Program-made: the position numbers and the translations under genes
In this document: in pieces, positions 22,575 through 60,900 of the stretch
Numbering within the stretch: position 1 is the first letter of the stretch
Layout: each line of letters begins with the position of its first letter
Source of the DNA: an uncultured Gammaproteobacteria bacterium
Lineage (GTDB): Bacteria > Cyanobacteriota > Vampirovibrionia > 2-02-FULL-35-15
Assembly: GCA_964602915.1 (NCBI GenBank)
Contig: CAZRTB010000002.1
Location: 86,301-150,300, forward strand
Direction of reading: 5' to 3'
DNA length: 64,000 bases
Notes under the pieces: generated by a model
Databases searched by the model: none
What the model saw: the letters and a program-made list of their open reading frames with translations, nothing else
Told to the model about the DNA's origin: nothing

Positions 22575-22597
22575 GGGTTAGATTATAGCGTATCTTA

Positions 22598-44694: not shown

Positions 44695-47004
44695 ATGCTT
44701 ATTCTGAAATTATTTATATTTATTTCCATAATTTTTTCTTTAGGATTTGTTTTTCTTAAAAGAATACTTTTAATTAATTCTTTAGTTTATCTGGTGCCAT
44801 TTTCTTTTGTTATAGGAATGGCTTTTTTCCTGGATATAATATCGATATTTGCTTATTTCTTTGGTATTAGTAATGCAGTTATTCTTGCATTAATACTAAT
44901 GCTAATTTTTTCTCTATTAATTGTATATTTCAAGAAAACAACTTTATCTAAAGTTGATATTAACTTTACAAAAAATGAACTATCAATTTTAGGACTTTTC
45001 TTATTAATACTTTCTATTGTTACCATTTTTATCACAGATACGTGGCCAATCTCAGATTATGATTTTCACCTATCTAGCGTTAATCACTTTTTAAAGACAA
45101 ATAAATTTCCGAATGATTTCTCTAATTGGCCTCACTTATTTACGCCATACCATTATGGCTTTGATATTATTTGTGCAGGATTAGCTAGCTTCTTTAGAAT
45201 TGATGCTACAACAATATTTAAGTTCATAGTGAGTATTTCTTCGGTGACTACGTTCCTTTCAGCATTTGCTCTTTCTAAATTTATAATTGAGCGCTTCCCT
45301 AATCTTAAAAATAATTCCAATGATTTCTTTACAACTTTTAGTGGAGCTATATTCTTTTATTTTACTGGCAACTTCTTACTTACAGATTCAATCTTCAGGT
45401 ATTTATTTAAATTGTATCCTGTTCAAGAAGGATGGAGCTTTTTGAAAACGGTATTAAATCTAGGCTTTCATGGCGGAGTGTTTAATGATATCGCTAGTGG
45501 TGGGATTTTATTTCCTTCTTTTATATTTGGTATCCAGTTTTTTTTGGTATTTTTAGTGTTTTTATATAAGTTTATAAACAGTGATAAATTTAACTATTTT
45601 AAGTTTATTTTACTTTTTGTACTAGGAATAGCATTGATTCATACTGCAGAATCAATACTTTTTACTTTGCTTTGTTCACTTTTCTTAATGCCAATAGTAA
45701 CTGTTCTTATTTCAAGAAAAGAAAATCCTAAAAAAGTGGTTTTACGCTGTCTTATGTCTGCAGGTTTAATTTTACTAATAATATTTTTAAATTCCATTTC
45801 TTATAATTTTCTAAAATCAAACTATTATTATCTGCCAACTTTTCTAGAGCTGACATTAAACCCAAACTTTCCAATGATAGAGATCTTTGGAAGATTTGGA
45901 GATGTTAATAATCATATGAACATTTCAGTCTTTTCCTGGGACTATATTTCAGAATTGGGCATTCAATTTCTTCTATCAATTATTATTCTTTGGTGGGTTG
46001 TAAAGAACAACTCAAAGTTTTCAAGCCTTGCGATATCTATTTTTCTTATTGGTACTATCTCTTCAATGCTCCTATATATAAAAAGCTCTCCGCCAGATTC
46101 TTTAAGGCTACTTCATCCAGGAATTGAACTTCTAAACATGCTATTTTGTCTCTTTGCTTTATCTAATTTAAAGAATATATTTAAACCAATTTTTTTCTTC
46201 TTTTTTACATTTCAACCACTCTTAAAATTCCTACTTGCAGGAATCTTTACTTTAAGCATTTTTGTAAATTCCCAATACCCCGAAGTACTTAACTCTGTTA
46301 TTAGAGAGTCAGTAGCTAAAAATAACGTTGTATTATTTACTGAACAGCTTAAGAATCTAAAAAATATGGTGAGGAATTCATATGCATGTTCTGATGTCCA
46401 TAAAAATTTATCTAACTATTTGCTCAAGAATTATACTGGTATTGAATGTGGAATATCAATTAATCCAAAACCTTTTGATTTGGCAGGAATTCCCTGCTAT
46501 ATTTCTAGAACAGCTTCACTCCCAAAAAGACTTTCATTTTTTACTTTATTAAAGACCTTAGATCCGTTTATTTTAAAAGAATTGAATATAAAGTGGATTT
46601 ATATAGATAGTCAATCTCAGCAATATATAGATGAAAAAATTATTAATGAAATGATTAAATTTGGTTATTTAAAGTTAATAAAAACAGAGCATGATGAATT
46701 GTCAGATCAATATTCTTCTCTCTATGAGTTTGTAAATCTAGATGATTATATAAGTAAGTATGAAAGAAGGGTTTATTGGACCTATGTAAAATATATGAAT
46801 GATACGCTAATTGTCATTCCAGAAGGAAATGAAATACAGAGCGTTTATTTATTTAAAACTGAAAAAGAAGCTAATAACTTCTTGAAAGAAATTATCAAAA
46901 AGAATAAAAATCTTGATCTTTATAAACCATTTGTTAATGCTGTTGAAAAGGACTTAATTCTCGGGAAAGCACAGCAAAATGGATTTTTAGTTAAATATCT
47001 TTAA
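44695..47004 (+). CDS. Large polytopic membrane protein of unknown family; paralog of 42294..44618
   Basis: 769 aa with the same architecture. The motifs YHYGFDIICAGLASFF and LNIKWIYIDSQ match the neighbour. The two are divergently transcribed from a 76-bp intergenic region. Confidence 0.4.
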   Translation: MLILKLFIFISIIFSLGFVFLKRILLINSLVYLVPFSFVIGMAFFLDIISIFAYFFGISNAVILALILMLIFSLLIVYFKKTTLSKVDINFTKNELSILGLFLLILSIVTIFITDTWPISDYDFHLSSVNHFLKTNKFPNDFSNWPHLFTPYHYGFDIICAGLASFFRIDATTIFKFIVSISSVTTFLSAFALSKFIIERFPNLKNNSNDFFTTFSGAIFFYFTGNFLLTDSIFRYLFKLYPVQEGWSFLKTVLNLGFHGGVFNDIASGGILFPSFIFGIQFFLVFLVFLYKFINSDKFNYFKFILLFVLGIALIHTAESILFTLLCSLFLMPIVTVLISRKENPKKVVLRCLMSAGLILLIIFLNSISYNFLKSNYYYLPTFLELTLNPNFPMIEIFGRFGDVNNHMNISVFSWDYISELGIQFLLSIIILWWVVKNNSKFSSLAISIFLIGTISSMLLYIKSSPPDSLRLLHPGIELLNMLFCLFALSNLKNIFKPIFFFFFTFQPLLKFLLAGIFTLSIFVNSQYPEVLNSVIRESVAKNNVVLFTEQLKNLKNMVRNSYACSDVHKNLSNYLLKNYTGIECGISINPKPFDLAGIPCYISRTASLPKRLSFFTLLKTLDPFILKELNIKWIYIDSQSQQYIDEKIINEMIKFGYLKLIKTEHDELSDQYSSLYEFVNLDDYISKYERRVYWTYVKYMNDTLIVIPEGNEIQSVYLFKTEKEANNFLKEIIKKNKNLDLYKPFVNAVEKDLILGKAQQNGFLVKYL

Positions 47005-49181
47005 TTCTTTTTAATGGTTAAAAGCTTCTCTAATGCAGAGTCTATTTTTAACTTAAGATTTTCATTTGCATTACTTCCATTAGCTTTATCTTTTGCAAGG
47101 GTTAAATATTTTATTGCATTATCAAAATCATTATTTCTAATAAAAAAGCTTGATACTAAATATAGAGATAATGGATTTTCGCTATCTGTTCCAGTAATTT
47201 TTTTTACTACCAGTTCAGCACTTTTTAAATCATTTATAGTTAAGAATGCTACTAAAGCTTCTCTGTAAAAAAGACTATTATGTGTTCTCAAACCATTTAA
47301 ATATGAATATTTTGCATATTCTGAAAGATTACCTTCTGTTTGTGATGTTTTTAAGGCTTCAAGCAATATTTCTTTAGAGTAGGGGAAAAGTTTTAATCCT
47401 TCTAATAAATATTTTTTTGAGGTTGGCAGGTCTTTCTCTATATCTCTTTTTAACCTTATTAAAGATAGTATTGTAATTGGTAGCTTTGGATAATCATCAT
47501 ACATCTTGTGAAATATATCTCTAGCTTGGTTTAATTTATTATTTTTAATTAATAGATTTGCATAAAGTTCTAAAGCTAATGGATCCAGCTTTTTAATATG
47601 TTTAATGCTCGATTCATAGTTAGATAGATTGCTCTTTAAAAGATTTTGATCTGTTGATTCTAAATCAATTAATGATAAGTAATAAATTCCTTTAGAGATA
47701 AAAGAATCTTTATCTAGTCCATAAGAATAGATGATTCCAGGAGTGGGTTTATTATTCTCATCTTTTAATTTTGACAAGGCTTTATTGACATATGTTTTTG
47801 CAGTGTTTTTGTAGTTTTCATATTCTTCTTTTGAATTTGAACAGTTGACTGCTAAATCGTTGTATCTAAAGGCTTTAAGAAGAAGGTTATTTGAAGTTTT
47901 TATGCTCGATGTTATTAATGCGTAGTTGTTTGTCCAGTCAAGAGTTCTAATCATTGTTCTTGTGGAAAAACATATTAATAATATTAAAAGAGCAATTTTC
48001 TCTACTTTTTTATTTTTAACAGTTGAAGAAAATATAGAATATCCAAATACTAAGAAGAAAATAGGTGTATATAAATATCTTTCTGCAAAAAGACAATATG
48101 TCTGAGATAAAACTTGTGAAAAAGGAAGAATGCTGATTATAAAAAGAGACGATGTCGTGACAAGCCAGAATCTTGATTTGTTTTTTAGATATAAATAACA
48201 TGGAACTGTTATCCATGCAGTTATTGCTAAAATGCAAAAAATACTATACGTATCAAATAAGCTTTCTCCTAGTTTTACTAATGATGATTGATCTAGAGAT
48301 AAAGCTTTTGGAAAAAATGACAATTTTATAGCATGAAAAATTATTTGTGGCGATAACCATAAAATTCTTTCAACTATTAGTTTTATAGAGCTCTCACCAG
48401 TTTTTATAAACTCATATTTGGAGAGAGTAAAATAGGCTACAAACAATAAAAATCCAACTAAATAAGGACTGGTTTTTTTAATTGATTGAAGTAATGAGTC
48501 TCTAAGATTACTTTTTTTAAGCTCATTTAATATTGAAAAAGCAAATACTGTCAAAGGTAGCATGATGATATGTTCATTAAACATTAGGAATAAAATAAAA
48601 ATTGTTAGTATAGAAATACTTCTTTTTAATGAAAGATCATTACTTATATTTAGAATAAAGTCATAAAATAGATAAAAGAATGCTGTATAGCTTAGTGTTG
48701 CACTCATATTTGTGCTTAAAAGAATAGACTCCGCATGTACAGGATGACATGACCAGAGTAGCGTAAGTATTATTAATATCAAATTATCTTTTGTAAAAGA
48801 TTTTAATATTAAAAATACAAAGATTGTGTTGATCATATGCAAGATTAAATTAAATAAATGATATAAAAAAGCACTTTTACCAAAAAACAGTCCAGTTATT
48901 AAAAGAAATGGTGTTGAAAAAATGCTATTTCTTTTAATTGATACGACTGAAGAATATAAGTAATTTGATGAAGTTAAGTTATTCTCTATCCCAAAAGTTT
49001 TAACTATTTCAAAAACTTCTTCTAAGGAATGTGGAATCGGAATTAAGTCCTCATTATAAATTAATCTTTCATCATAGAAAATCCAGGGTCTGTTTAAGGT
49101 ATGAAGATAAATAAATAAGACTACAATTATGCATATTGTTATGCTTGCTAATGTTTTATTTTTAAAGATTAATTCTTTCAT
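47001..49181 (-). CDS. TPR-repeat-containing GT-C (PMT_2/TMTC-like) membrane glycosyltransferase, paralog 5 of 5
   Basis: N-terminal multi-TM domain with WIFYDERLIYNE (DE motif after TM1) and YHLFNLILHMINTIFVFLIL (the H..N...H hallmark), plus ERYLY and RTLDW motifs. The C-terminal half is TPR-like. Confidence 0.5.
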   Translation of the reverse strand: MKELIFKNKTLASITICIIVVLFIYLHTLNRPWIFYDERLIYNEDLIPIPHSLEEVFEIVKTFGIENNLTSSNYLYSSVVSIKRNSIFSTPFLLITGLFFGKSAFLYHLFNLILHMINTIFVFLILKSFTKDNLILIILTLLWSCHPVHAESILLSTNMSATLSYTAFFYLFYDFILNISNDLSLKRSISILTIFILFLMFNEHIIMLPLTVFAFSILNELKKSNLRDSLLQSIKKTSPYLVGFLLFVAYFTLSKYEFIKTGESSIKLIVERILWLSPQIIFHAIKLSFFPKALSLDQSSLVKLGESLFDTYSIFCILAITAWITVPCYLYLKNKSRFWLVTTSSLFIISILPFSQVLSQTYCLFAERYLYTPIFFLVFGYSIFSSTVKNKKVEKIALLILLICFSTRTMIRTLDWTNNYALITSSIKTSNNLLLKAFRYNDLAVNCSNSKEEYENYKNTAKTYVNKALSKLKDENNKPTPGIIYSYGLDKDSFISKGIYYLSLIDLESTDQNLLKSNLSNYESSIKHIKKLDPLALELYANLLIKNNKLNQARDIFHKMYDDYPKLPITILSLIRLKRDIEKDLPTSKKYLLEGLKLFPYSKEILLEALKTSQTEGNLSEYAKYSYLNGLRTHNSLFYREALVAFLTINDLKSAELVVKKITGTDSENPLSLYLVSSFFIRNNDFDNAIKYLTLAKDKANGSNANENLKLKIDSALEKLLTIKKN

Positions 49182-51505
49182 TAGTTTTCTAGCATTTTAT
49201 ATAAAGTATCAAGTAATGGAGAATATTTGGGATAACTGTTCGTAAGCTGAGCTAAGTCTTCAGTTAAAGAAGCGGCAATACGTTTGTCCCCACTAATAAT
49301 ATTTAGCTTAGCAAGATTAAATATAATCTCTACATATAAGTCTGGATTTATATTTATACTTTTGCTTATTTCGTAAGCTTTAGTTAGGACTTTTAAGCTT
49401 TTATTAGGATCGTTCTTTATATAAAAATATTTACTAAGTAAATAAAGTGTTTCTGGATCATTATTTCCATATTTTTCGAGCTTACTAGCTATGGAAACCA
49501 TTAAAGGAGAATTAAAATCTTTTAGTAGCATAAATATGGAAAATGCTTGGGTGTAATACTTTAAGGACTGAGTCCTTAATCCCAGTAGATAACTATATTT
49601 GCTAGCACTACTTAAATCATTATTTCTATAATAAAACTCCACACCCTTTTTTAGAATAGAAGGATCATATGGAAATTTTTCAAATTCTTTTTTCAGATAG
49701 TACTCTGCTTTTGTTAAATCTCTTAAATGTTCTGAATGAATTTCTATTAGTTTGTTTAATATTAAAGGATCATTGGGATATTGATCTAGCGATTTTTCAA
49801 GGATGCTTCTTGCTTCACCATATCTTTTTTCTTTAATTAAAAAATAAGAGTAAAGCTCTACAATACTTGGGCTGGCTTTTTCAATTTTATCTTTGAATGG
49901 AGATAAAATTTCTAGCCCTACCGTTACGGGCTCATTTAATTCTATACATTTTGACGATGCTAATAAGAAAGCAATTTTAAGTAAAAAAGAATCAGGGTCA
50001 ATGCCATAAGACGTTAATATTTTAATTTCTTTTGATGAAGCTTTTTTATTTTCAAAATCTTTTTTTGCGCTTTCTAGGAAATCGATAGCTTCGATAAAAT
50101 ATTTTTTTGATTCTTGAGTCTTTAATGGTTCAAATACTGGAATCATTTTTCCTAACATCCCGAGCTTTACAGCTTTGAAGAAATTATTATTTGTGTTTTT
50201 ATACGTCGAATTAATGAAAGAATAATTATCACTCCATTCACTTGTTCTAAGCTTTGATCTTGTAAAACAAATACTTAGAGCTAAAATCAATAAAATAAAA
50301 ACAAAGGATTTTATTTTATTCTTTGTTTTGTTTTTGATTAGTAGTGCTATGCCAAGCAATATAAATAGTAATGGAATATAAAGATACCTCTCTGCTGATA
50401 ATGTATAAGAGGGAAATAGAATATGTAAAAATGGAAAAAGAGAAATAAAAAATCCCCATGATAAAAATAGAGCCCACTCTTCTTTTTGCTTTAAAAAGTA
50501 GATCAATGGTATTGTCAGAAAACATAATAAAAACATTAAGCAAAAAATTGAATAAGGATCTAGTCTGGAGTCTCCGAGCTTAACAAATATAGTTTGATCG
50601 ATAGAAAGTGTGTACGGGTAAAAAACAAGTTTTAATAAATGGAAAAATATTTGTGGTGAAAGCCAAAATACTCTTTCAAGGATAATCTCTATATCTGGGT
50701 TTAATGTTTGTGAGGATTTAAATCCAGCTATGAAAAAAAAGTAAAATGAATAAATTAAAAAACCAATTATATATGGAACAGTCTCCTTTGTTGCATTTTT
50801 CATGCTTGAAGAAAATCCAGATTCTTTATAGCTTTGACTAAATGAAATCATGAAAAGTAAAAATGGTAGTGAGATTATATACTCATTTGTAAGCATGGGA
50901 ATTAAAAAAAGTATTGGTATTAAAATAATTCTTACTAAAGATAAATTTTGAGATCTATTTTTTAGAAAATCTAAAATAAATCCCAATAAAAACATGTAGC
51001 TGAATGTTGCACCTATATTTGTTGATAGGAGTATCGGCTCTATCATTACTGGATGAATAGCCCAGATTAAAGAAAATAATAAAGGCAAAAATTTTAATTT
51101 CTTATCGCGTAGAAAAAATTTAAAAATATAAAAAACAAAACAGGTGTTTATTACATGTAATAAGAAATTAAATAAATGATAGTAGAATGGATTGCCTTTA
51201 AAAAAACAGTTTATTGTCATCCATAAAATCTGACCAAATGGAGAAGTCCTAATTACTTGATTAGAGCTATACATAAGATTAGAAGAGACAATATTAAAAT
51301 TAAAACCTAAGTTCTTTATAATTTCAGGTATTTCAGATAATGAAAGCGGTACAGGAAAATATTTGTTCTCATAAATAATGTTTTCATCATAATAGAGCCA
51401 TGATCTTGATAGTGTTGGAATAAAAATTATAGAGAGCACTGTTAGACAAAATAATAATTCGTTATTTAATTTGTTTTTTATTACTGATTTTTTACTGCTA
51501 ATCAT
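49181..51505 (-). CDS. TPR-repeat-containing GT-C (PMT_2/TMTC-like) membrane glycosyltransferase, paralog 4 of 5
   Basis: WLYYDENIIYEN and YHLFNFLLHVINTCFVFYIF, with ERYLYIP and a C-terminal TPR-like region. Its stop overlaps the start of the downstream paralog (49181). Confidence 0.5.
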   Translation of the reverse strand: MISSKKSVIKNKLNNELLFCLTVLSIIFIPTLSRSWLYYDENIIYENKYFPVPLSLSEIPEIIKNLGFNFNIVSSNLMYSSNQVIRTSPFGQILWMTINCFFKGNPFYYHLFNFLLHVINTCFVFYIFKFFLRDKKLKFLPLLFSLIWAIHPVMIEPILLSTNIGATFSYMFLLGFILDFLKNRSQNLSLVRIILIPILFLIPMLTNEYIISLPFLLFMISFSQSYKESGFSSSMKNATKETVPYIIGFLIYSFYFFFIAGFKSSQTLNPDIEIILERVFWLSPQIFFHLLKLVFYPYTLSIDQTIFVKLGDSRLDPYSIFCLMFLLCFLTIPLIYFLKQKEEWALFLSWGFFISLFPFLHILFPSYTLSAERYLYIPLLFILLGIALLIKNKTKNKIKSFVFILLILALSICFTRSKLRTSEWSDNYSFINSTYKNTNNNFFKAVKLGMLGKMIPVFEPLKTQESKKYFIEAIDFLESAKKDFENKKASSKEIKILTSYGIDPDSFLLKIAFLLASSKCIELNEPVTVGLEILSPFKDKIEKASPSIVELYSYFLIKEKRYGEARSILEKSLDQYPNDPLILNKLIEIHSEHLRDLTKAEYYLKKEFEKFPYDPSILKKGVEFYYRNNDLSSASKYSYLLGLRTQSLKYYTQAFSIFMLLKDFNSPLMVSIASKLEKYGNNDPETLYLLSKYFYIKNDPNKSLKVLTKAYEISKSININPDLYVEIIFNLAKLNIISGDKRIAASLTEDLAQLTNSYPKYSPLLDTLYKMLEN

Positions 51506-51538
51506 TTTTTATTAAGTATAGTTGATCAAGTTTAACTT

Positions 51539-53458
51539 TTAAAGACCATTTGATCTTAGTTTGTATAACTCAACGAAGTGTTCATATTTTTTCATGTCAC
51601 CTTTTAAAAAATAAAAATCTCGCAAGTGGGTTATGACATCAATATTGTAAGGAAAATAATCAAAGGCTAGAGTTAAATATTTTTCTGCATGAGCAAAATC
51701 ATTTTTTAAAATGTATAATTCTGAGAGTGGAATTAAAATAAGAGGACTTATATTCTTTTCTCGTGCTTTTTCAAGAAAGGTTATAGCCTTATCGTTCATA
51801 TTTCCTATTTTTAATAGTTTGGTGTAAAAAGAGACAACAGTAGGATCATAAATAGGATTTCTGTCTAAATGTTCTGAAATTATTCTATATGCAAACCGGA
51901 CATCATTTTCCAATCCCATTCTAGAAAATGCAATTAGATATCCAGCTTTTGTTTGTTTAGTTGTAGGATCAAGCCCATAAAGCTTTAAAATCTCTGGAAT
52001 TGGTTTGCTTTTTTCTCCTTCTAAGCTTGAATAATAACTACTTAAAAGCTGAATTGAAGAATTTATTAGATTTAGTCCTCTTATTTGATTATTAATATTA
52101 GATCTGTCATCTAAAAGCAGGCTCCCGGTAAATTGCAATCTTAAAGCTTTTAATAAAACATCTGAGTTTGATATGTAGGCAGAATAAAAGAGTTTTTGAC
52201 TATTACTCCAGTCTAATGTTCTGAAATAGGTTCTTGTTGATAAAACTAATAGTAGGGTAAGCATAACAGAGAAAACAATTTTATCTTTTTTTAAATTTAA
52301 TATTAAATGTAAAATTCCCAGTATGAAAAATAAGCTGGGAAGATAAAGATATCTTTCGCTACACAAACAATACGTGGGTGAGATTGTTTGTAAAAATGGA
52401 GCTAAAGAAATTATAAAGGTAGATAATGGCAGTGAGATATTTAAAAATAAATCTTTTCGATTAAAAATACTAAAGACTATAAATCCAATTAAGCACATTG
52501 AAAATAAAATACAAAAAATTGCATAAATGTGAAAATAACTATCTGCAAAAAATACATTACCAGATTGGTCTATCGTTAATTTTAAGGGGAAAAATAATAG
52601 TTTTATGTAATGTATAAAAATTTGAGGTGAAATCCAAAAGACTCTTTCAATTACTAATCTGTAGTTTTGAAAATTGTTTGAAAAATTGTGTTTAGTTGGC
52701 GACAGTATGAAATAAATACAAAATAATATAATTGAAATAAACAATGGAGATACTTTTAAGAGCGCTTGTTTAATAGAGGTATTAAGATTGGTTTTATTCT
52801 TTAAATCCTCATATAGAACATATGAAAATAAAATAAAAGGTAATGTGACTGCATATTCACAGATGAATAACGTTATTGAAAACATTATAAACAGTACAAG
52901 AGGATTTCTGTTTTTTAAAAACAAATAAAAAACAACCATATATAAAAAATAGGTTAGAAGCGCCGCCCAATTTGTAGCAAAAACCACTGACTCTACATTT
53001 ACAGGATGTAAAGCCCACATCAGAGTTAAAGATGATGATATGAAAAGACCCTTTTTCTTATCAATTTCATATTTTTCAATAAAGCTATTTAAAAGTAAAA
53101 ATAAAATATAAGTATTTCCTGCGTGAAGTATAAGTGATAATAAATGGTAATTAAAAGGATCCTTTTTAAATAAATATTGAACAAATAAGGTTATTAAATT
53201 ATTTACAGGATCACATCTTAAGTTTGAAATGCTTGTGTAGAATGTGTTGCTAGCCTCGAAATAATTATTTATTCCAAATGTTTTAATGAAAGTAAAAATC
53301 CTGCTGAAATTATTCAGGATAGGTATAACAGCCTCATTGTAAATAAGTTGCTCATCAAAATTTCTCCATGGATATACCAATGTATGAAAGTAAAAAATAA
53401 AAACAATTAATGGTACTGCTATATAAAAGCTTTTTTCGTTTTTTAGAATATTTCTCAA
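51539..53458 (-). CDS. TPR-repeat-containing GT-C (PMT_2/TMTC-like) membrane glycosyltransferase, paralog 3 of 5
   Basis: WRNFDEQLIYNE, FEASNTFYTSISNLRCDP, YHLLSLILHAGNTYILFLLL, ERYLYLP and RTLDWSN, plus C-terminal TPR-like repeats. Confidence 0.5.
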   Translation of the reverse strand: MRNILKNEKSFYIAVPLIVFIFYFHTLVYPWRNFDEQLIYNEAVIPILNNFSRIFTFIKTFGINNYFEASNTFYTSISNLRCDPVNNLITLFVQYLFKKDPFNYHLLSLILHAGNTYILFLLLNSFIEKYEIDKKKGLFISSSLTLMWALHPVNVESVVFATNWAALLTYFLYMVVFYLFLKNRNPLVLFIMFSITLFICEYAVTLPFILFSYVLYEDLKNKTNLNTSIKQALLKVSPLFISIILFCIYFILSPTKHNFSNNFQNYRLVIERVFWISPQIFIHYIKLLFFPLKLTIDQSGNVFFADSYFHIYAIFCILFSMCLIGFIVFSIFNRKDLFLNISLPLSTFIISLAPFLQTISPTYCLCSERYLYLPSLFFILGILHLILNLKKDKIVFSVMLTLLLVLSTRTYFRTLDWSNSQKLFYSAYISNSDVLLKALRLQFTGSLLLDDRSNINNQIRGLNLINSSIQLLSSYYSSLEGEKSKPIPEILKLYGLDPTTKQTKAGYLIAFSRMGLENDVRFAYRIISEHLDRNPIYDPTVVSFYTKLLKIGNMNDKAITFLEKAREKNISPLILIPLSELYILKNDFAHAEKYLTLAFDYFPYNIDVITHLRDFYFLKGDMKKYEHFVELYKLRSNGL

Positions 53459-53460
53459 AT

Positions 53461-55503
53461 TTAACTACCACCAAATATCTTTTTATAAGCTAATTCTATT
53501 TCTTTTGTACTATCATCACTGGGATATTCGTATAAAAGTTTATGTAAAATTAAATCTGCTTTTGATTTATTTCTCATAATTATATAAACAATTCCTGCCT
53601 CTTGTAGGCTTTGAATATCATGGGTTCTAAGTCCATGAAGATATGAGAAATAAGCAAAACGCTCAGGCTGATTTTTAATTTTATATATTCTTACTAGTCC
53701 ATAGAGTGTTACAGAATCAAATGGAAACATTGAGAATGATTGTCGAAGATATTCCTCTGCTTTATTTAAATCTTTGTATTTGTATTCAGTAACATCTGCT
53801 AAAGAAAGGAATAATATTGGATTTAATTTTTTTTGATTTAAAGACTTGATTAAAACCTCTTCTGCTAAATCTATTCTCTTGGTTAAAAATAAAATAGGGT
53901 AATAAAAATTCAATATTAAGCTGTCAGTAACTCTTAGATTTCTTATCTGAGGAGTTAAAAACTCTTCAATTTTATAATTATCTTTATTTAAGCTACTTTC
54001 ACACAATGAAATCAAAAAAGCAGTTTTTGACTTTAAAGTTTTATTGTCTAATCCGTAATATTTAATTACAAGTGGGGCTGAATCGTTCTCATTTATTGAG
54101 CTAAAATAATTTTTAGTTTGCAGTAAAACTTTCTTAATTATTTCCTTTGCTTCTTCAGGGCTATCTTTTTTAATAGAGTCTGCAATCATTTTATGTCGCA
54201 AACTTCTTACAATAGGAGATCTGGTTGTTTCTATGCTTGATGAAAAAAGTGATTGAGTATCTTTCCAGTCTAGAGTTCTTATGTATGTTCTTGTTGAAAG
54301 AATAAGAGTTGTAATTATCAATAAAATTGAGGCAATCTTTAAATTGTTTCCTGAAATTATTCTGGATAAACTGAAAATAAGAAAAAATGTCGGTAGATAT
54401 AAATATCTTTCACTTCCTAAATTATAAATAGGAGAAATAATATGTGTGAATGGTAATAGTGCTATGAAAAATGGGATTATTAAATTTCCAATTGAGTTTA
54501 TTGTTTTATTCTTCGTGAAAAAAGAACATGCAGATATTACAAATAAAAGTATTGTTGAAAGTGTACAAAAAATACTGTATGGGGAAAATAGTGTCTTTGA
54601 AATGTGGATAACACTTGTTTGGTCAATGGATAAATTAATTGGGAAAAAGATTAAAGAAATATAATTAAATATTACTTGTGGAGAAAGCCAGAAAATCCTT
54701 TCAAATGTTAAAGGTAAGAAAGGGAAATCCTTATCATTAAAAGTTAGACTAATATTTGAAGATGTCTTTGATAAGAAGAAAACAATTAAAAATATTAACA
54801 GTGTAATGAAAAGAGGAATTGTTTTTTTGTATGAATTACTTGATTTAGTATATGTATAAAAAAGAACCATAAAGGGTAGTGTTACTGAGTACTCCACTGT
54901 AAAGCATGATATTAAAAGCAGTAAGCCTACGATGATTTGATCCATGAAACCTTCATTTTTATTAGTTAGTGATAAATAAAAGGTGAAAATATACATAGAG
55001 CAAGTGAGAACTCCTCCCCAGTTTGTAGAAAGTAGTATTGTTTCTGAATTAACAGGGTGTAATGCCCATAGAATTGGTAATATTACTGAAATAACCTCTT
55101 TGTATATATTGGAATTGTCATTAATATAAAATTTTCTTATTAGTAAAAAAAGAATTATAGAGTTGAATATATGTAGTGATAGTGAAAATAAATGATAGTA
55201 AAAAAAGTTCTTTTGAAATAAAAATTGAATACAAAGAGCTAATCCATTACATACAGGGTCACATCTTAAGTTTGAGATGCTTGAGTAAAATGGGTTACTT
55301 GCCTCAAAATAATTTCTAAATCCAAAATTACTTATAATTTCTAACAGTTCATTAAAATTCCTGGCTATAGGGAGTAATGTTTCATTGAAAATAAGTTCTT
55401 CGTCATAGAATTTCCATCCGTAATTAAGAGTATGAAAATAAAATATAAAAATAATTACAGAAATAACTATTGAGAGAGCTATACTTTTTTTATTTACCAT
55501 CAT
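53461..55503 (-). CDS. TPR-repeat-containing GT-C (PMT_2/TMTC-like) membrane glycosyltransferase, paralog 2 of 5
   Basis: WKFYDEELIFNE, FEASNPFYSSISNLRCDP, YHLFSLSLHIFNSIILFLLI, ERYLYLP and RTLDWKD. It is 2 nt from the upstream paralog. Confidence 0.5.
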   Translation of the reverse strand: MMVNKKSIALSIVISVIIFIFYFHTLNYGWKFYDEELIFNETLLPIARNFNELLEIISNFGFRNYFEASNPFYSSISNLRCDPVCNGLALCIQFLFQKNFFYYHLFSLSLHIFNSIILFLLIRKFYINDNSNIYKEVISVILPILWALHPVNSETILLSTNWGGVLTCSMYIFTFYLSLTNKNEGFMDQIIVGLLLLISCFTVEYSVTLPFMVLFYTYTKSSNSYKKTIPLFITLLIFLIVFFLSKTSSNISLTFNDKDFPFLPLTFERIFWLSPQVIFNYISLIFFPINLSIDQTSVIHISKTLFSPYSIFCTLSTILLFVISACSFFTKNKTINSIGNLIIPFFIALLPFTHIISPIYNLGSERYLYLPTFFLIFSLSRIISGNNLKIASILLIITTLILSTRTYIRTLDWKDTQSLFSSSIETTRSPIVRSLRHKMIADSIKKDSPEEAKEIIKKVLLQTKNYFSSINENDSAPLVIKYYGLDNKTLKSKTAFLISLCESSLNKDNYKIEEFLTPQIRNLRVTDSLILNFYYPILFLTKRIDLAEEVLIKSLNQKKLNPILFLSLADVTEYKYKDLNKAEEYLRQSFSMFPFDSVTLYGLVRIYKIKNQPERFAYFSYLHGLRTHDIQSLQEAGIVYIIMRNKSKADLILHKLLYEYPSDDSTKEIELAYKKIFGGS

Positions 55504-57581
55504 CTTTTTAATTTTGATTTTAAAAATTCAATTCTTTTTAATGTTCTACTAGCGCTTGCATCGTCATTTAGCTTTATGTATGCTGAATATGCATTCTCTA
55601 AGTCTTCTATAGAATGATGTCTTAGCCCATACACGTATGAAAATTTAGCAAAGTTTTTTAAGTCACCTTTTAACCCATAAATTTTTGTCAGAACTAAAAG
55701 AGTAAAAACATCATATGGAAAATATTTATATGCAAACAATGCATGTTCTTCTATTTGATTTAAATCTTTATATTTGATTTGAATGAGATCACAATACGGA
55801 TAAATTAACCTTGTTGAATAAGGGTATAGTTCAAGTGCTTTTTTAAAAACCACTTCAGCAGAATCAATTTGATTGTCGAAATAAAGTGTTGATGCATAGA
55901 ATGCTAACCCTGCTGAGTCTAGCTTTGATAGATTATTTACAAAAGGTTTAATGTTTTTCAGCGCTAATTTATGATTTTCATTTGAAAGGGAAAAAATAGC
56001 TTGAGAAAGCAGATATCCGGATTTACAAAGGAAGCTTTCAGGATCAATTCCATAGCTCTTTAATATGTGAGGAGTCTTATCTTGATATTTTTCTTTCTCA
56101 GATTGGTAAAACTGAACTGCTAGATTAAGTTCATCAATTGCTTTCAATTGGTATTCAATTGGGACTTCTCGTTCTGGATACTGTGAAAAAATCTTATCTT
56201 GTGGTGTTAATCCTTTATATCTTATTGCTTTAAAAAGATGATTGTTTGTGGATTTAATTACTGACTCATATAAGGATTGGCTGTTTTTCCAGTCTTGTAG
56301 CCTGAAATATGACCTTCCTCCAAATATTAAAACCATTGTTATGAGAATGAAAGTTATTACCTTTGATTTTCTTGAATAATAGTTTAAGTAATGAGATAAG
56401 CCAAATATGAATATAAAAGAAGGGAAGTATAAGTATCTTTCACTAGCAAAGTTGTAAATAGGGGCAATTATCTGAGAATAAGGAACTAAAGCAATAAAAA
56501 ATAAAGATATTGTCAGGAAGAAAAAAATTAACTTTGACTTATTTCTAACGATTGCATATAAAGAAGTCAGGAATATAGCTGTCATAAAAACAATACAAAA
56601 GATTGCATAAGGATCATAAATTGCTTTCCCGAATCGTACTAGATTAGTTTGGTCTATAGAAAGTTTTAATGGGAATAACAGAAGCTTCAAAAAGTGGAAA
56701 AGGACTTGAGGAGAAAGCCAGAGTATTCTTTCGAAAATTAATAACATAGAAGTTTGTGATGTGAAATTTACTTTTGTATTAGAAAAAATAAACAATATAA
56801 TATAAATAAAAGAAGCACTTATAAAAGGAATAATTGAAAAGATAGACTTTTTAACTGTTTCTAATAAACCACATTTATTTTTTGAAAGATAAAGTATTGA
56901 AGTGTAAGAAATAAGTACTAAAGGTATAAAAAAGTGAAATTCAGCTGTTAATAGAGCAAAGGAATAGGTGAAAAAGATAAGAAGATTCTTTAACAAGGAG
57001 ATTTTTTCAAATTCATAGCTTTTTAAGAATGAATCTAAATATAAATAAATTGCTATAAGGCTAAATGTATAGCTTAAAACTATATTTGCATTTGTTAGAA
57101 GTAAAACAGATTCTATATTACTAGGATGAATTGCCCATAATAGTACTAATAATGAACATATAACTAATTTTTCAATATGAACATTTGACTTTAGATTTAG
57201 TACCTTAGAAGTTAATATATAAAGAATAGAAGCATTAATTAAATGAAGTATAAGACTGTATAGGTGATAATTTACTGGATTCTTTTTAAAAAGGACTTGA
57301 ATTAATAGCTGTAAGAAATTTCCAAAAGGATTACACCTCAAGGAGACTATATTTGAATAAGTGGTATTTCCTGCTTCAAAATGTTGTTTTAATCCAAGCC
57401 ATGAAATCAATTCAAACATCTCTGAAAAACTAAAACATACTGGAAGGTATGTTTCTTTAAAAGGCATAAGTTCATCATAAGATCTAACCTTAAAAAAAAC
57501 TGATGGTAGAAAAAATAAAAATATAACTAGAATTGTTAAAAACAAAGTCAAATATATTTTTGGTGTTTTGCTCATAAACAA
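55500..57581 (-). CDS. TPR-repeat-containing GT-C (PMT_2/TMTC-like) membrane glycosyltransferase, paralog 1 of 5 (first gene of the operon)
   Basis: VRSYDELMPFKE, FEAGNTTYSNIVSLRCNP, YHLYSLILHLINASILYIL, ERYLYFP and LQDWKNS. The ATGA overlap with the next gene (55500-55503) indicates translational coupling. Confidence 0.5.
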   Translation of the reverse strand: MFMSKTPKIYLTLFLTILVIFLFFLPSVFFKVRSYDELMPFKETYLPVCFSFSEMFELISWLGLKQHFEAGNTTYSNIVSLRCNPFGNFLQLLIQVLFKKNPVNYHLYSLILHLINASILYILTSKVLNLKSNVHIEKLVICSLLVLLWAIHPSNIESVLLLTNANIVLSYTFSLIAIYLYLDSFLKSYEFEKISLLKNLLIFFTYSFALLTAEFHFFIPLVLISYTSILYLSKNKCGLLETVKKSIFSIIPFISASFIYIILFIFSNTKVNFTSQTSMLLIFERILWLSPQVLFHFLKLLLFPLKLSIDQTNLVRFGKAIYDPYAIFCIVFMTAIFLTSLYAIVRNKSKLIFFFLTISLFFIALVPYSQIIAPIYNFASERYLYFPSFIFIFGLSHYLNYYSRKSKVITFILITMVLIFGGRSYFRLQDWKNSQSLYESVIKSTNNHLFKAIRYKGLTPQDKIFSQYPEREVPIEYQLKAIDELNLAVQFYQSEKEKYQDKTPHILKSYGIDPESFLCKSGYLLSQAIFSLSNENHKLALKNIKPFVNNLSKLDSAGLAFYASTLYFDNQIDSAEVVFKKALELYPYSTRLIYPYCDLIQIKYKDLNQIEEHALFAYKYFPYDVFTLLVLTKIYGLKGDLKNFAKFSYVYGLRHHSIEDLENAYSAYIKLNDDASASRTLKRIEFLKSKLKR

Positions 57582-57999
57582 CTTAAGCTTATATTTATTT
57601 TTTGTATTACTTTATTTTTTATTTATATTTTTTTTATAATATGGGGGATTATTTTTAGTAAATATCTTTTTTACCTATTAGGAAGTCTCCTAAACTTTTT
57701 AAAACTATGGATAGGTAATGAACTAGGAGAGAAAAAGAAACCCTATATATAATGAACAATAAAGCAGTCAAAACGTGTATTACGATATGTGAGTATTTCG
57801 AGTTAAATAAAATTGTTGTTAACAGGAACTTTATGATTGTGTTGAAGTTCATTCAAACTCGTGTATTCTTTAACTTGGCGTGTTAAGTACAAATCTTTTT
57901 AGTTTTATTTTATGGAATTAAAAAGAATTCGGCCTTAACACAAAAAAGTTATATAAAGGTTAAGTAACATTAACTAAAAATTTAAAGGAGTAGAAATTA

Positions 58000-60900
58000 A
58001 TGAAATTGATTTCATCGAAAAAGACTAAACGCCAGATAGCGTTATTGTTTGTTTTCGCATTCATGCTTTCAAATCTTCTGTCATTATTTGGCCCAAGTGC
58101 CAATGCGGCAGTAACGATTACAGCCCCATCAGCTGGAACCTGTTTTCAACACACAGGAACCACTGCAAGCGGTGCACTAGTAACGGTTTATAATATAGGT
58201 ACAGTTCAAGTTTCCTTAACAGCATCAGAAGTCACACCTGGTGATGATGCTGCAGCTACAGATGGTATTACAGCTGGCGTAGCAAGAGCAACACTTGCTG
58301 GTAGTATTTCAGCAGCTTCAGATGTAATCGGAAACGTATTTAGTATTGTTCCTCCAACAGGTACAAACTTTGTTATCGTTCCTGGTTTTGCAGATACAGC
58401 GGCTACTAACCATTTAGCAGCTGCTAATGCTTCAATCTCAAACACTTCATCAAGTGATACTTCAGCATCAGTTGATAGTACATTAGGTGTAAGCGTAGGT
58501 GTTGTAACAACAGGTACATCTGGTATCGGTAGAGCTATCGTTGCAATTGCAAGAGATGCAGGTGACGAAGTTTATCCTAAATCAGGTACATCAACAAATA
58601 CAGTTACAGTTTCATTCAATGGATTAGGTATTGCTATACCACCATCCGGAGATGGTTCATTAAGTGGTACATTACAAGCAACATTTGATTCAACACCTCC
58701 ATCAGGAATCGGTGTATCAGGTGGTGCTTCAGCAGCAGCAGTTGCTTCAGGTATTCCTGGCTTAAGTGGAACACTTAATCTTTGTACAGTTACAACAACC
58801 GCTAACCAATTAGAAGCAGTTTCAGATGCAGATGATGATACTACAGATCTTTATGATAAAACAGCATCATCCTCAAACTTAATTGCTCTTAGCCAAATTG
58901 GTTCATTTACATCATTAACAGCTCAAGATTTAGCTACAAATACAGCTACACCAAGAGTTGACCTTGAGCCAATCCTTATTAGAGGTACTACAGGTACAGG
59001 TACAGCTACAAGAGACCAAGTTTTCGCAACTGGTGAACTCTTAAGCGATATCGATACAAATGCAGAATCTCCATCTACATCAGCTCTTGATTTAGCGACA
59101 GCATTTGGTAATAACGTTATTACACCAATTACTATTGCATTCTCTGATGACAATGCTACAGCAACAACAACACTTAATGCAGTAGACATTATTATTGAAA
59201 ATTCAACTGCTCCTACAACAGCAGCTGGTTTCAGTGCAACACAATCATCAAGATTTGGTTTCTTGGGAGCTCTTAGAGCCGCTCAAATCGCTGGTGGTAA
59301 TACAGCTTCAGTAACAGCATTCGTAGCTGGTTCGCACTGGGGTATTACATCAAACAGAGGTGATACAGCAGTAGTTCAAGAAGCTAACCGTGCTAACGCT
59401 AACAACACCGTATTAAATGGTAGTTTTGGTGGCTTAAATGCAAACAATACAGAACCATTTAATGACACTTTTGTTGACTTAAGAATTAACTGTGATGGAT
59501 CAGCTCCAGTTGCAGGTTGGTTTGCTATCGGTAACGGATCAAATGCAGGCGCACAAGCTGCATTCGGTACTACAGCAAATACAAATCAATTGCTTGCTAG
59601 ATCACAAGCAGGTTCAAAACTACTTGTTAGTAGCTTAAGCAATTTCTACACACAAAATCTTACAAACATTGCAGGTACAACACCAGGAACTACAGTAGCT
59701 GGAGACTTCAATCCAACTCCATTCTTAGGTGGTGCTAATGCAATTGTTGTTGACTCAACACTTAGAAATAATGCTCTCTTATATGCATCATGTGCTAATA
59801 ACACATTAACCTTATTCCCAATTCAGGATGCTTTCGATGCTACAAGAGATATTCTTGCTATTACTCCTAAGTTGACAGTCTCAAATATCAGCAATACATT
59901 GTCATCTGATACAAATATCGTTGCTCAAATTTCTGGTAATAACTTAAGTGGTACAACAACACTTAACTTAACCAAGTTACTTGGAGCAATTGGTACATCA
60001 GGTGGTCAAACCAGCACACTTGCAGCAGCTACCGGAGTCGGACTTTCAGAAGCCGCTCAGTTAGCAATTAACTGTTCAAGTGGTAGCTCATCAACAGTAA
60101 CTCTTAGCAGTGTAACCGCTACATCACTGGATGCTACAGTAGCAGCAGCATGTACAAGTGGTTCTATTGCAACCCCTCCAGCACTCTTTAAGGGTGGTGC
60201 GCCAAATACAGTTTCTGGAACTACAGTAATTGATGGTTCACCAGTTGTTCAGAGTGAAGGCAGAGGTGTTTTACTCAAAGAGTTAAGCGCAACTGGTTTC
60301 AGCGAATTAGTTAACAAAGTCGGTGGTGGTTCAACCGGAACTGTTATCGAAGTACAACTCCCAAGTGGATGTGATGTAATCGATGATAGAGACGATAACA
60401 ATACAGCAGCAGCATCAGGTGGTGGTGGTAACGATGTAACTATGTTTACACTTACTTCAACTGCAGGTGTTTCAGTCGCTGCAACAGGTATTGGTACTAC
60501 TCCAGCTGATTTAACCGTAGTAAATGCAGTCATTCCTTCAACAGGAGCTGACCCAGCATTATTACACTTCGGTTTCACCTCAGCTTCAGGTGTTGGTACT
60601 GATGCAACTACAACAGACGCAGTTCTTTTAAGACTTGATGCTCAAGACATCTTCTGCCCTTCAACAGTTGCAGATGGTGCTTTAACAGGTCTTGTAAGAG
60701 CACAAAACAAAACAGTAAGCCCAACAATAACTGAAAACTTAGGATCAGTAAGTTTCGGTACAGCAACAAGTGCGGCAACATTCTCAATTGCAGATGATGT
60801 AGTAACCTCAACAAAAGGTGAAACTTCAACTAATACAATGATTGGTACAACACCAAGATTGTCAGGTGGAAGTGTAACTACAGCAAATCCATTTAAGATT

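Follow-up and report, generated by a model that had tools for sequence, protein, structure and literature searches.

Tandem genes for five TPR-containing membrane proteins of the GT-C type, candidate protein O-glycosyltransferases, in a gene island of Melainabacteria

The stretch of DNA analyzed here (the window; 64,000 nucleotides of contig CAZRTB010000002.1) carries five consecutive minus-strand genes for large membrane proteins, which raise the question of what kind of enzyme they encode, on what these enzymes act and why several copies stand side by side. A sequence-only reading had described them as an operon of paralogous membrane glycosyltransferases with a common architecture. The open reading frame listing of the window gives five frames of 639-774 aa with exactly the boundaries of that reading, and the five products align end to end. 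The genes and the parts of the last copy are as follows:

55500..57581, minus strand: T1, 693 aa, first gene of the array; TTG start with an alternative ATG 6 nt downstream; predicted 11-TM GT-C domain and C-terminal TPR; 'first-position' ortholog class G1 (bootstrap 100%)
53461..55503, minus strand: T2, 680 aa; 'middle' ortholog class
51539..53458, minus strand: T3, 639 aa; TTG start; 'middle' ortholog class
49181..51505, minus strand: T4, 774 aa; 'last' ortholog class
47001..49181, minus strand: T5, 726 aa, last gene of the array; copy used for the structure model
47928-49181, minus strand: membrane GT-C domain of T5, residues 1-418
47004-47927, minus strand: periplasmic TPR domain of T5, residues 419-726
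49068..49073, minus strand: codons of T5 D37-E38, an acidic pair in the first periplasmic loop that is invariant in all five paralogs

T2 starts on the stop codon of T1 (ATGA, 4-nt overlap, 55500-55503), T2 and T3 are separated by a 2-nt gap (53459-53460), and the ATG of T5 overlaps the T4 stop codon by 1 nt (TAATG, at 49181). The overlap or 2-nt spacing formerly claimed for four junctions holds for these three, but not for T3/T4, where a 33-nt spacer (51506-51538) is found. As judged from spacing, the tight or overlapping junctions fit a co-transcribed array with coupled translation; a promoter and terminator scan was uninformative for operon status.

Overall pairwise identity between the copies is 30-38%, with 32-45% for the membrane half and 21-33% for the C-terminal half; at 53 columns of the membrane domain all five carry the same residue. 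The genes are thus true paralogs, with a likeness far beyond shared hydrophobicity. In a tree that takes in orthologs from six other genomes, the proposed subgroups of T1, T2 and T3 versus T4 and T5 were recovered with bootstrap values of 99% and 100%. Because they are only 30-38% identical, the paralogs are not recent duplicates, and the duplications must be ancient, since in related Melainabacteria tandem arrays of 4-12 copies keep this order. Ortholog classes track array position (bootstrap 94-100%), and each paralog is matched in other genomes by orthologs of the same position (40-58% identity), which implies long-term purifying selection on every copy. The paralogs are old, diverged and probably non-redundant. 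To call a five-fold expansion unusual misleads here, as five copies lie at the low end of the range in this lineage.

Pfam and NCBIfam searches of the five proteins left the membrane domain unrecognized and returned weak TPR matches only; a PDB sequence search gave no match to the membrane domain, and PMT (PF02366), PMT_4TMC and DUF1736 had no direct Pfam score on the five proteins. A family profile of the membrane domain only, against which T1 scores 454 bits, matches the membrane domains of other TPR proteins with 93-148 bits over essentially the full domain. These targets score 34.7-37.7 with Pfam PMT_2 (gathering score 26.1) or 48.3 with TMTC_DUF1736 (gathering score 27), and the DUF1736 segment of protein P0120 aligns with the ER(I/V)FWLSPQ...LSIDQ loop. 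At E<=1e-10, 10,823 representative proteins match the profile, and the relatives examined carry PMT_2 or DUF1736. The AlphaFold2 model of T5 has a pLDDT of 94.5; a whole-model Foldseek search returned TPR proteins only, and the top structural hits are Pmt4 and Pmt2, both protein O-mannosyltransferases, and STT3B, an oligosaccharyltransferase. Because the cytoplasmic loops carry 9-15 K+R and the short periplasmic loops none in every paralog, the predicted topology is 11 TM helices with the N-terminus inside and a periplasmic TPR domain, an arrangement shared with TMTC. Profile homology and conserved loop motifs support a GT-C fold of the PMT/TMTC superfamily, as had been proposed, and the array proteins are a new, unannotated subfamily of a known enzyme kind.

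The TPR-like nature of the C-terminal half also stands: in a profile search against PDB sequences, query positions 552-664 match consensus TPR proteins (E 1e-7), in addition to the weak Pfam matches, of which one in T4 is the sole match above a gathering score (TPR_14, 26.6 bits). In the end-to-end alignment T3 has the shortest TPR domain. Each paralog is thus predicted to join an 11-helix GT-C domain to a periplasmic TPR domain with about eight repeats.

None of the five copies departs from the loop motifs D-E, ER..W..DQ and ERYLY. The motifs named in the sequence-only reading are real, with details slightly off: the motif after TM1 is [YF]DE[RNQEL] instead of YDE[RNQE]; the helix motif given as Y-H-L-x-N is YHLx[NS]xxLHxxN, with N in only two copies; ERYLY[LIF]P is ERYLY[TILF]P; and RTLDW occurs in three copies and not in all, the other two having RTSEW and RLQDW. 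Invariant in the five paralogs are D37, E38, H108, H115, H146, E151, E203, E271, R272, D297, E367, R368, Y371 and R412, and eight of these 14 residues are also invariant across 101 close and distant homologs. The D-E pair is equivalent to the DD/DE of TMTC, ArnT and Pmt1 (PMC7801869), and by this equivalence D37-E38 is predicted to be the GT-C catalytic/acceptor-binding motif. D-E corresponds to TMTC motif M1 and ERYLY to motif M7 (ERxxY). The array proteins lack the Lys of motif M4 (KE) and have DQ in place of DW, so that donor binding may differ from that of TMTC.

Candidate genes for the supply of a sugar donor, and two further membrane proteins, lie in the same island:

25719..26612, plus strand: GT2 glycosyltransferase (Pfam Glycos_transf_2), candidate maker of the lipid-linked donor
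36730-37701, minus strand: RmlB, dTDP-glucose 4,6-dehydratase (NCBIfam, above equivalog cut-off)
37686-38756, minus strand: RmlA long form, glucose-1-phosphate thymidylyltransferase (NCBIfam, above equivalog cut-off)
39611..40603, minus strand: flippase-like membrane protein (LPG_synthase_TM / TIGR00374, 84 bits, cut-off 43.2), candidate lipid-linked sugar translocator
42294-44618, minus strand: DUF2298-like large polytopic membrane protein
44695-47004, plus strand: DUF2298-like large polytopic membrane protein, 23% identical to the preceding one (E 9e-46)

The GT2 gene stands some 20 kb away from the array. Its product best matches families of polyprenyl-phosphate sugar synthases (Dol-P-hexose transferase, AglJ, ArnC, PpgS), with all NCBIfam matches far below the equivalog cut-offs. 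For RmlB and RmlA the scores, as paired with their cut-offs, are 463.4 vs 365.1 and 336.7 vs 320.25, and the two enzymes are predicted to supply a 6-deoxyhexose nucleotide sugar. All related loci keep the flippase-like gene in synteny with the array, RmlA and RmlB are also syntenic, and one to three copies of the DUF2298-like type always follow the array in related genomes. Sugar-tailoring enzymes of the island include GT4, a carbamoyltransferase, methyltransferases, an acetyltransferase and radical SAM proteins.

Upstream of the array, two Thr/Ser-rich proteins are candidate acceptors:

57582..57999, no strand: divergent intergenic region between the array and ST1337, 418 bp, AT-rich
58000..62013, plus strand: ST1337, 1337 aa, 26% Thr+Ser, Sec-type signal peptide; Ig-like beta-sandwich domains in the model
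62151..63575, plus strand: ST474, secreted, 34% Thr+Ser, SSSTTTSSTTSSSSS linker; second candidate acceptor

The promoters of the array and of the ST1337 gene are presumed to lie both within 57582..57999, for which the promoter scan was likewise uninformative. The model of ST1337 is of medium confidence (pLDDT 73), and its Foldseek matches are PrgB, AgI/II and pilin Ig-like domains. All 44 homologs of ST1337 (50-70% identity) are from Melainabacteria; ST1337 is co-conserved with the array and adjoins it in the window and wherever else the beginning of the array can be seen, divergently beside the first array gene in loci L010, L015 and L017 as in the window. Ten shared lengths suggest that ST1337 homologs and array genes occur on the same contigs. 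ST474 orthologs adjoin ST1337 in L015 and L017. Ig-like domains (cadherin EC, IPT) are O-mannosylated by eukaryotic TMTC and TMEM260. The array enzymes probably decorate ST1337, the adjacent, conserved surface protein, acceptor and sugar being deduced from the gene neighborhood and homology. The neighborhood could also reflect a shared envelope function of enzymes and protein that are not enzyme and substrate, and the island encodes no fewer than five other large polytopic membrane proteins that could just as well be the enzymes acting on ST1337.

We hold with middling confidence that the array encodes a battery of non-redundant periplasmic protein O-glycosyltransferases, a reading in which acceptor, sugar and activity are deduced. 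Cytoplasmic enzymes of the island, RmlA and RmlB by family assignment, would make the nucleotide sugar, which may be tailored by the methyltransferases, acetyltransferase and radical-SAM enzymes. The GT2 enzyme, by family resemblance, would load the sugar on polyprenyl phosphate, and the flippase-like protein would carry it to the outer face of the inner membrane. There, by homology, the ER..W / D-Q and ERYLY loops of each paralog would hold the donor phosphate, the TPR domain would recognize the exported acceptor, most likely ST1337 (58000-62013) and its smaller neighbor ST474 (62151-63575), and the D-E pair would direct a single sugar onto Ser/Thr hydroxyls. Each paralog may serve a different domain, site or sugar, or the paralogs may form hetero-oligomers like Pmt1-Pmt2, as suggested by their divergence, which is greatest in the TPR half, and by their fixed order across genomes.

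A tentative alternative, which deserves weight, is that the five paralogs act on a glycan or lipid-linked acceptor and add successive or alternative sugars to an envelope polysaccharide or glycolipid, the TPR domain being a periplasmic scaffold as in BcsC, AlgK and PgaA. Such a role belongs in mycobacteria to the tandem EmbC-EmbA-EmbB and the Aft arabinosyltransferases, and on O-antigen to serotype-specific GtrC enzymes. The embCAB genes resemble the array as proposed here in being tandem paralogous GT-C genes of one operon with divided labor, there for one polymer; unlike the array they number only three and encode GT53 arabinosyltransferases that act on arabinan and have carbohydrate-binding C-terminal domains in place of TPR. 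The abundant sugar-tailoring enzymes are typical of complex glycan synthesis, several GT-C families occur within the one locus, glycans and lipids are also among the acceptors of GT-C enzymes that have periplasmic domains, and the weak NCBIfam TPR matches are to polysaccharide-system proteins (PrsT, BcsC, PilW). However, Pmt4, Pmt2 and STT3B all act on proteins, and the combination of 11 TM with an outer C-terminal TPR characterizes the protein O-glycosyltransferases TMTC and TfpW. A role in polysaccharide synthesis is also disfavored because no Wzx/Wzy/Wza, ABC polysaccharide-export, polymerase or ligase genes were recognized in the window, and it leaves unexplained why a Thr/Ser-rich secreted protein is so strictly conserved together with the array and encoded beside it.

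It is improbable that only one or two copies are catalytic and the rest degenerate pseudo-enzymes with regulatory or scaffolding roles, or redundant recent duplicates. Inactive members are frequent in paralog families, the TPR domain of T3 is truncated and two genes have TTG starts, but every copy retains the full set of putative catalytic and donor-binding residues, and both the low identity between copies and the selection seen in their positional orthologs speak against it. Still less credit can be given to the view that the membrane domain is no glycosyltransferase but, for example, an O-antigen ligase/polymerase, a transporter or another polytopic protein whose likeness to GT-C lies merely in hydrophobic helices. 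The missing database matches and the Foldseek result would be compatible with this, but it is effectively refuted by profile homology with PMT_2 and DUF1736 proteins over the full length, by the large set of profile matches, of which the relatives examined carry PMT_2 or DUF1736, and by the D-E and ERxxY motifs conserved on the periplasmic side.

The protein O-glycosyltransferase reading is a well-supported lead and does not represent a new kind of system. TMTC1-4 (CAZy GT105; TMTC_DUF1736 + TPR) likewise have 11 TM, a C-terminal TPR on the non-cytoplasmic side, an acidic pair after TM1, ERxxY between TM9 and TM10, a long TM7-TM8 loop homologous to DUF1736, several non-redundant paralogs and an acceptor of Ig-like beta-sandwich domains (cadherin EC), as is likely for the array. 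Unlike them, the array proteins are bacterial and periplasmic, are encoded in collinear tandem arrangement, lack a direct DUF1736 score, have DE for DD besides the M4 and DW differences, and would use a polyprenyl-phosphate sugar that is not necessarily mannose (6-deoxyhexose pathway nearby). Systems of GtrA/GtrB/GtrC and Citrobacter GT136 combine a synthase for polyprenyl-phosphate sugar with a flippase and with a GT-C transferase that works outside the cytoplasm (PMC11127046), and the window has a candidate for each; these systems differ in that they modify O-antigen polysaccharide, their GT-C enzyme is without TPR, and their flippases are GtrA, MATE or SMR, whereas that of the window is of the LPG_synthase_TM type. 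PMT enzymes (GT39; yeast Pmt1/2/4, Mycobacterium and Streptomyces Pmt) likewise carry D-E in loop 1; their substrates are secreted proteins rich in Ser/Thr, and the yeast paralogs form hetero- or homodimers. In contrast, the array proteins have C-terminal TPR and no MIR beta-trefoil, no PF02366/PMT_4TMC match and about 10% identity. The pilin O-arabinofuranosyltransferase TfpW of Pseudomonas aeruginosa, compared here by its published description, has DDx in periplasmic loop 1 and transfers a polyprenyl-phosphate sugar onto Ser/Thr of an adjacently encoded surface protein; unlike the array it is a single gene beside pilA, its acceptor is the type IV pilin, and it may also polymerize glycan.

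The T1-T5 array, five tandem minus-strand genes, consists of intact GT-C/TPR paralogs whose predicted active-site residues form a conserved constellation and whose TPR domain is periplasmic, and it belongs to a set of ancient, ordered arrays. It has a conserved linkage to a Thr/Ser-rich secreted protein with Ig-like domains, and the linkage extends to genes for nucleotide sugars, a GT2 and a flippase-like protein. The five consecutive minus-strand ORFs in the six-frame ORF list match exactly the coordinates of the sequence-only reading; the junctions between them were read from the sequence.

55500-57581, minus strand: T1, 693 aa, TTG start
55500-55503, minus strand: T1/T2 junction, 4-nt ATGA overlap
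53461-55503, minus strand: T2, 680 aa
53459-53460, minus strand: T2/T3 junction, 2-nt gap
51539-53458, minus strand: T3, 639 aa, TTG start
51506-51538, minus strand: T3/T4 junction, 33-nt spacer
49181-51505, minus strand: T4, 774 aa
49181, minus strand: T4/T5 junction, 1-nt TAATG overlap
47001-49181, minus strand: T5, 726 aa

Tight junctions had been claimed at all four positions and are found at three, the fourth being the 33-nt spacer (51506-51538). The proteins are alignable end to end with pairwise identities of 30-38% (N-terminal, membrane half 32-45%; C-terminal half 21-33%), and the membrane domain contains 53 invariant columns. The motifs described earlier are present in a corrected wording, namely [YF]DE after TM1, YHLx[NS]xxLHxxN and ERYLY[TILF]P; RTLDW occurs in three of the five copies, and the other two are without the exact motif. 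Between 46.5 and 58.1 kb shuffled sequence contained more promoter-like sites than the real one, and no intergenic terminator was convincing, both scans being uninformative in DNA of 27% GC. The sole match of the Rfam and tRNA scans was a tRNA-Val at 11889-11962, with none near the array.

In Pfam and NCBIfam scans the membrane domains of T1-T5 remained without a match at E≤0.1, and the matches obtained were weak TPR hits confined to the C-terminal halves. None of the proteins reached the gathering threshold of PMT_2 (PF13231) or matched it at E≤0.1, TMTC_DUF1736 (PF08409) was unmatched at E≤0.1 on the TM7-TM8 loop of all five, and the Pfam domains PMT, PMT_4TMC and MIR were not matched in T1-T5. 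A five-protein profile searched against all PDB sequences retrieved TPR proteins alone (query ~552-664). The HMM check proposed for the GT-C assignment (Pfam PMT_2, DUF1736) thus fails on its face, because the Pfam, NCBIfam and PDB-sequence matches are all to TPR. In public sources the proteins are unnamed and their catalytic half is invisible to Pfam; no description of the family or of tandem PMT_2/TPR arrays was found in the literature.

The interpretation itself, TPR-containing GT-C proteins of PMT_2/TMTC-like type, is supported in substance by the GT-C fold and by relatives with PMT_2 and DUF1736. When 5.8 billion proteins were searched with a profile, about 85 close relatives emerged. Every one is unnamed or 'hypothetical' and comes from Candidatus Melainabacteria, the sister lineage of Cyanobacteria that lacks photosynthesis. 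Beyond a large score gap followed TPR proteins, several with PMT_2 and one named protein O-mannosyl-transferase. TPR relatives reached by the family profile score 27.5-37.7 bits for PMT_2 (gathering threshold 26.1), and P0120, a distant TPR relative, carries TMTC_DUF1736 at residues 269-333 (48.3 versus 27 bits). A membrane-only profile of the close family, without TPR, matches the membrane domains of these relatives with 93-148 bits over profile positions ~5-440, so the relationship is not TPR-driven; the homology of T1-T5 to PMT_2/DUF1736-bearing TPR proteins is solid as judged from these profile scores. The DUF1736 segment of P0120 and the ER(I/V)FWLSPQ...LSIDQ loop of the family align with each other, and by this alignment the TM7-TM8 loop is homologous to DUF1736 despite the absent direct Pfam match.

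An AlphaFold2 model of T5, built from a 101-sequence alignment, reached a mean pLDDT of 94.5 and a pTM of 0.93. A Foldseek search with the whole model gave a result list swamped by TPR proteins. As modelled, the membrane domain is a polytopic GT-C fold, nearest to protein O-mannosyltransferases. Run exhaustively against 1.84 billion representative proteins, the membrane-domain profile matched 43,308 relatives at E≤1e-3, 10,823 at ≤1e-10 and 87 at ≤1e-30; on these counts the T1-T5 family is a small, discrete clade within a very large superfamily.

The T5 model contains 11 membrane helices, after which residues 419-723 form TPR-like hairpins with approximately 17 helices. The TM7-TM8 loop of about 57 residues is mainly helical, and the sole beta element is a hairpin (68-85) in loop 1. 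With helix boundaries taken from this model, each paralog has 9-15 Lys+Arg in the predicted cytoplasmic loops and none in the short opposite-side loops; because Lys+Arg are confined to the cytoplasmic-side loops, the N-terminus is placed inside and the TPR domain in the periplasm. The predicted topology of T1-T5 is 11 TM, N-terminus in, TPR on the non-cytoplasmic side. The acidic motif D37-E38 (T5 numbering) in the first extracytoplasmic loop, 9 residues past TM1, is invariant in all five paralogs, and D37 is kept in at least 90% of 101 homologs. Equally invariant in the five are H146 and E151 (loop 2), E203 (loop 3), E271-R272, W275 and D297-Q298 (loop 4), E367-R368-Y369 and Y371 (loop 5), and R408, R412 and W416 (TM11 end). 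H108, H115, E151, P353, R368, Y369, Y371 and R412 are unchanged in all 101 close and distant homologs. The possibility that some copies are pseudo-enzymes was rejected, since every catalytic-loop residue is invariant in the five paralogs.

TMTC proteins possess 11 TM with a DUF1736 loop between TM7 and TM8 and ERxxY between TM9 and TM10, and their motifs are M1 DD, M2 SHKSYRP, M4 KE(T/Q)xxT, DW and M7 ERxxY (PMC7801869). T1-T5 have the topology in common with them (11 TM, C-terminal TPR non-cytoplasmic) and M7 complete as ERYLY, whereas M1 reads DE instead of DD, DW is replaced by DQ, the Glu alone is kept in M4 (E203; Lys absent), and R..P alone is recognisable of M2. By this motif comparison the family is placed as a separate subfamily in the PMT_2/TMTC-like branch of GT-C, not TMTC (GT105) or PMT (GT39) proper. 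PMT proteins (GT39) carry a MIR beta-trefoil in a large lumenal loop, whereas T1-T5 are without a MIR domain. TfpW of P. aeruginosa, a GT-C protein with 11 TM and periplasmic TPR, O-glycosylates the pilin encoded alongside, and its architecture matches that of T1-T5. The cyanobacterial 'Ogt' pilin glycosyltransferase was excluded as a relative, being a soluble and unrelated GT41 enzyme. Tandem GT-C paralogs have precedent. The fold, architecture and probable chemistry of T1-T5 are those of known TPR-bearing GT-C protein O-glycosyltransferases.

With one genome scanned for each GTDB species, 13 loci were obtained, all in metagenome-assembled genomes of Melainabacteria or Caenarcanales. Copies in these loci were counted with the membrane-domain profile.

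L010, a Caenarcanales genome: 4 tandem copies
L006, L007 and L015: at least 6 copies each
L013/L008 and L014/L009, two genomes: at least 7 copies each
L017, L012 and L005, Melainabacteria isolate nzgw192: 12 tandem copies and one divergent copy further downstream
JAHFBF010000001.1, ~205.6-231.8 kb: the nzgw192 array (L017 1-9582, L012, L005 1-12280)

The five-fold expansion had been regarded as unusual, which does not hold for this lineage: with 4-12 tandem copies in related genomes, five lie at the low end. A neighbour-joining tree was built from 39 copies of seven genomes (Kimura distances, 100 bootstrap replicates), and in it the copies cluster by array position, not by genome. Bootstrap values are 100% for a 'first-position' class with T1, 94% for a 'middle' class with T2 and T3, 100% for a 'last' class with T4 and T5, and 99% for T1 plus the middle class versus the rest. 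Two subgroups proposed earlier, T1-T3 and T4-T5, are thereby confirmed (99% and 100%); separate ortholog clades of T4 and T5 were unsupported (31% and 21%), the joint T4+T5 clade alone being supported (100%). Because the copies cluster by position and not by genome, the duplications are older than the split of these genomes, and a recent local amplification of the array was rejected on the basis of this positional orthology together with the 30-38% identity. Gene order and every copy are, on the evidence of the tree, retained across genomes, which argues for non-redundant functions of T1-T5.

The 12 members in nzgw192 form one uninterrupted array adjoining the orthologs of ST1337 and ST474, the two secreted proteins encoded beside T1; the four copies nearest ST1337 are apparently without a close counterpart in the window (best match 31-35% identity). 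An extra divergent TPR/GT-C copy (~235-255 bits, family profile) lies between the flippase-like gene and a methyltransferase gene in related genomes.

L005 16712-18988: extra divergent copy
L009 18884-20695: extra divergent copy
L004 7622-9862: extra divergent copy
L011 5912-8137: extra divergent copy

In the window this copy was lost or never gained, since the flippase-like gene (39611-40603) there immediately adjoins the methyltransferase gene (38781-39611).

Housekeeping genes occupy the first 18.5 kb of the window, namely those for ThrRS, sigma-70, IMPDH, PRPP synthetase, GyrB and RecF, and the region from ~20.6 to 57.6 kb is one envelope-glycosylation island.

18671-20464, plus strand: 597-aa protein, signal-peptide-like N-terminus, no Pfam match; between recF and the island
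20634-25629, minus strand: asparagine-synthase-like amidotransferase, then two radical-SAM genes (one with a B12-binding domain); left edge of the island
26613-28265 and 28262-29905, plus strand: tandem ~550-aa polytopic pair, 4-nt coding overlap (28262-28265), directly after the GT2 gene
After the ~550-aa pair: methyltransferase, GT4, carbamoyltransferase
33897-36743, plus strand: 948-aa polytopic protein, large extracytoplasmic N-terminal region
RmlB: score 463, cut-off 365
RmlA, long-form: score 337, cut-off 320
38781-39611: methyltransferase, adjoining the flippase-like gene
39611-40603: flippase-like protein, 84 versus TIGR00374 cut-off 43
40605-41693, minus strand: radical-SAM/SPASM protein, with a hexapeptide acetyltransferase next in island order
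42294-44618, minus strand, and 44695-47004, plus strand: DUF2298-like polytopic pair, ~770 aa, convergent/divergent

The best matches of the GT2 protein, encoded at 25719-26612 and ~20 kb from the array, are Dol-P/Und-P sugar synthases, at scores far below the equivalog cut-offs. The block of DUF2298-like, radical-SAM/SPASM, flippase-like, methyltransferase, RmlA and RmlB genes is also found after the array in related genomes.

On the other side of the array lie the candidate acceptors.

58000-62013, plus strand: ST1337, 1337 aa, Sec-type signal peptide, divergent from the array over a 418-bp spacer
62151-63575, plus strand: ST474, secreted, 474 aa, 34% Thr+Ser, next after ST1337

Both are secreted and very rich in Thr/Ser/Ala/Gly; ST1337 contains 14.8% Thr, 13.2% Ala, 11.4% Ser and 10.5% Gly. 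The GC content is 40-42% at these genes versus 27% in the array, and that of the ST1337 gene probably reflects amino-acid composition. The 44 homologs of ST1337, all from Melainabacteria, share 50-70% identity over the full length, and the size of full-length members is tightly conserved (1310-1388 aa); neither ST1337 nor its homologs contain a Pfam domain. Contigs with ST1337 homologs and contigs with array genes have ten lengths in common, which suggests that they are the same contigs, and an ortholog occupies the same divergent position in all three other loci showing the array start (L010, L015, L017). The model of residues 1-1200 is all-beta (pLDDT 73, pTM 0.64), and its matches are Ig-like domains arranged in tandem in surface adhesins and pilins, among them PrgB (E 2.5e-11), the C-terminal domains of AgI/II, and pilin shafts. 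In Melainabacteria ST1337 may form an S-layer or fibre or act as an adhesin; no pilin was identified among the array neighbours examined. Eukaryotic TMTC and TMEM260 are likewise described as acting on Ig-like domains.

Bacterial periplasmic glycosylation follows a logic of GT2, flippase and GT-C (PMC11127046). In such a three-component system T1-T5 would supply the GT-C part, with the flippase-like protein and GT2 of the island as candidates for the others; in this context an outer-face polyprenyl-phosphate sugar is the candidate donor. A mechanism proposed by analogy with this logic and with TMTC and TfpW architecture is that a sugar, once activated in the cytoplasm, would be attached to polyprenyl phosphate and flipped. 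Each paralog would then transfer it to Ser/Thr of the neighbouring surface proteins, with the acceptor domain or site chosen by the TPR domain, and the paralogs may split the work or form hetero-oligomers.

The most far-reaching form of this proposal, which we rate as rather unlikely, is that Melainabacteria possess 4-12 TMTC-like protein O-glycosyltransferases as an ancient, collinear battery that serves a single co-evolving surface protein with Ig-like domains, each paralog having its own domain or site. If true, eukaryotic domain-specific O-mannosylation (TMTC on cadherin EC, TMEM260 on IPT) would have a prokaryotic counterpart and perhaps an evolutionary relative, and the bacterial TPR/GT-C superfamily of >10,000 sequence clusters would receive its first functional assignment.

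Bacterial TPR-bearing GT-C proteins are very numerous, and to our knowledge the acceptor is known for almost none except TfpW. The locus provides an unusually specific hypothesis, composed of ordered paralogs, a co-conserved Ig-like neighbour and candidate donor-pathway genes, and the acceptor hypothesis for T1-T5 is useful and testable. Confirmation would mean that TMTC-type domain-specific protein O-glycosylation exists in bacteria, would explain acceptor specificity divided among paralogs via TPR domains, and would characterise a major part of the cell envelope in an uncultured phylum. Should the acceptor be a glycan instead, the locus would be one more pathway of the Emb/Aft kind, in which several GT-C enzymes build an envelope polymer.

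Several other island proteins are polytopic. The ~550-aa pair, 32% identical (E 7e-81) and with a W-D-E motif just past TM1, had no match in Pfam, NCBIfam or PDB sequences and looks like a second unannotated GT-C-type family. The DUF2298-like pair, 23% identical (E 9e-46) with a weak DUF2298 match in one member (35 bits), may be another GT-C-like family; related genomes invariably have one to three such copies after the array, and in the window the stop codon of 44695-47004 overlaps that of T5 on the opposite strand by 4 nt. The 948-aa protein was without a match in Pfam, NCBIfam and PDB sequences, and a partial homolog (40% identity) occurs near the array in L004. For the other three types of membrane protein, phmmer gave no meaningful PDB matches. 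The 597-aa protein at 18671-20464 may belong to the outer membrane or the periplasm. Within the syntenic block the radical-SAM/SPASM protein is the best conserved, with 74-84% identity across genomes versus ~45% for the glycosyltransferases, and sugar tailoring or surface-protein modification are its candidate roles. Altogether the island encodes three radical-SAM enzymes, an unusual density for a sugar locus.
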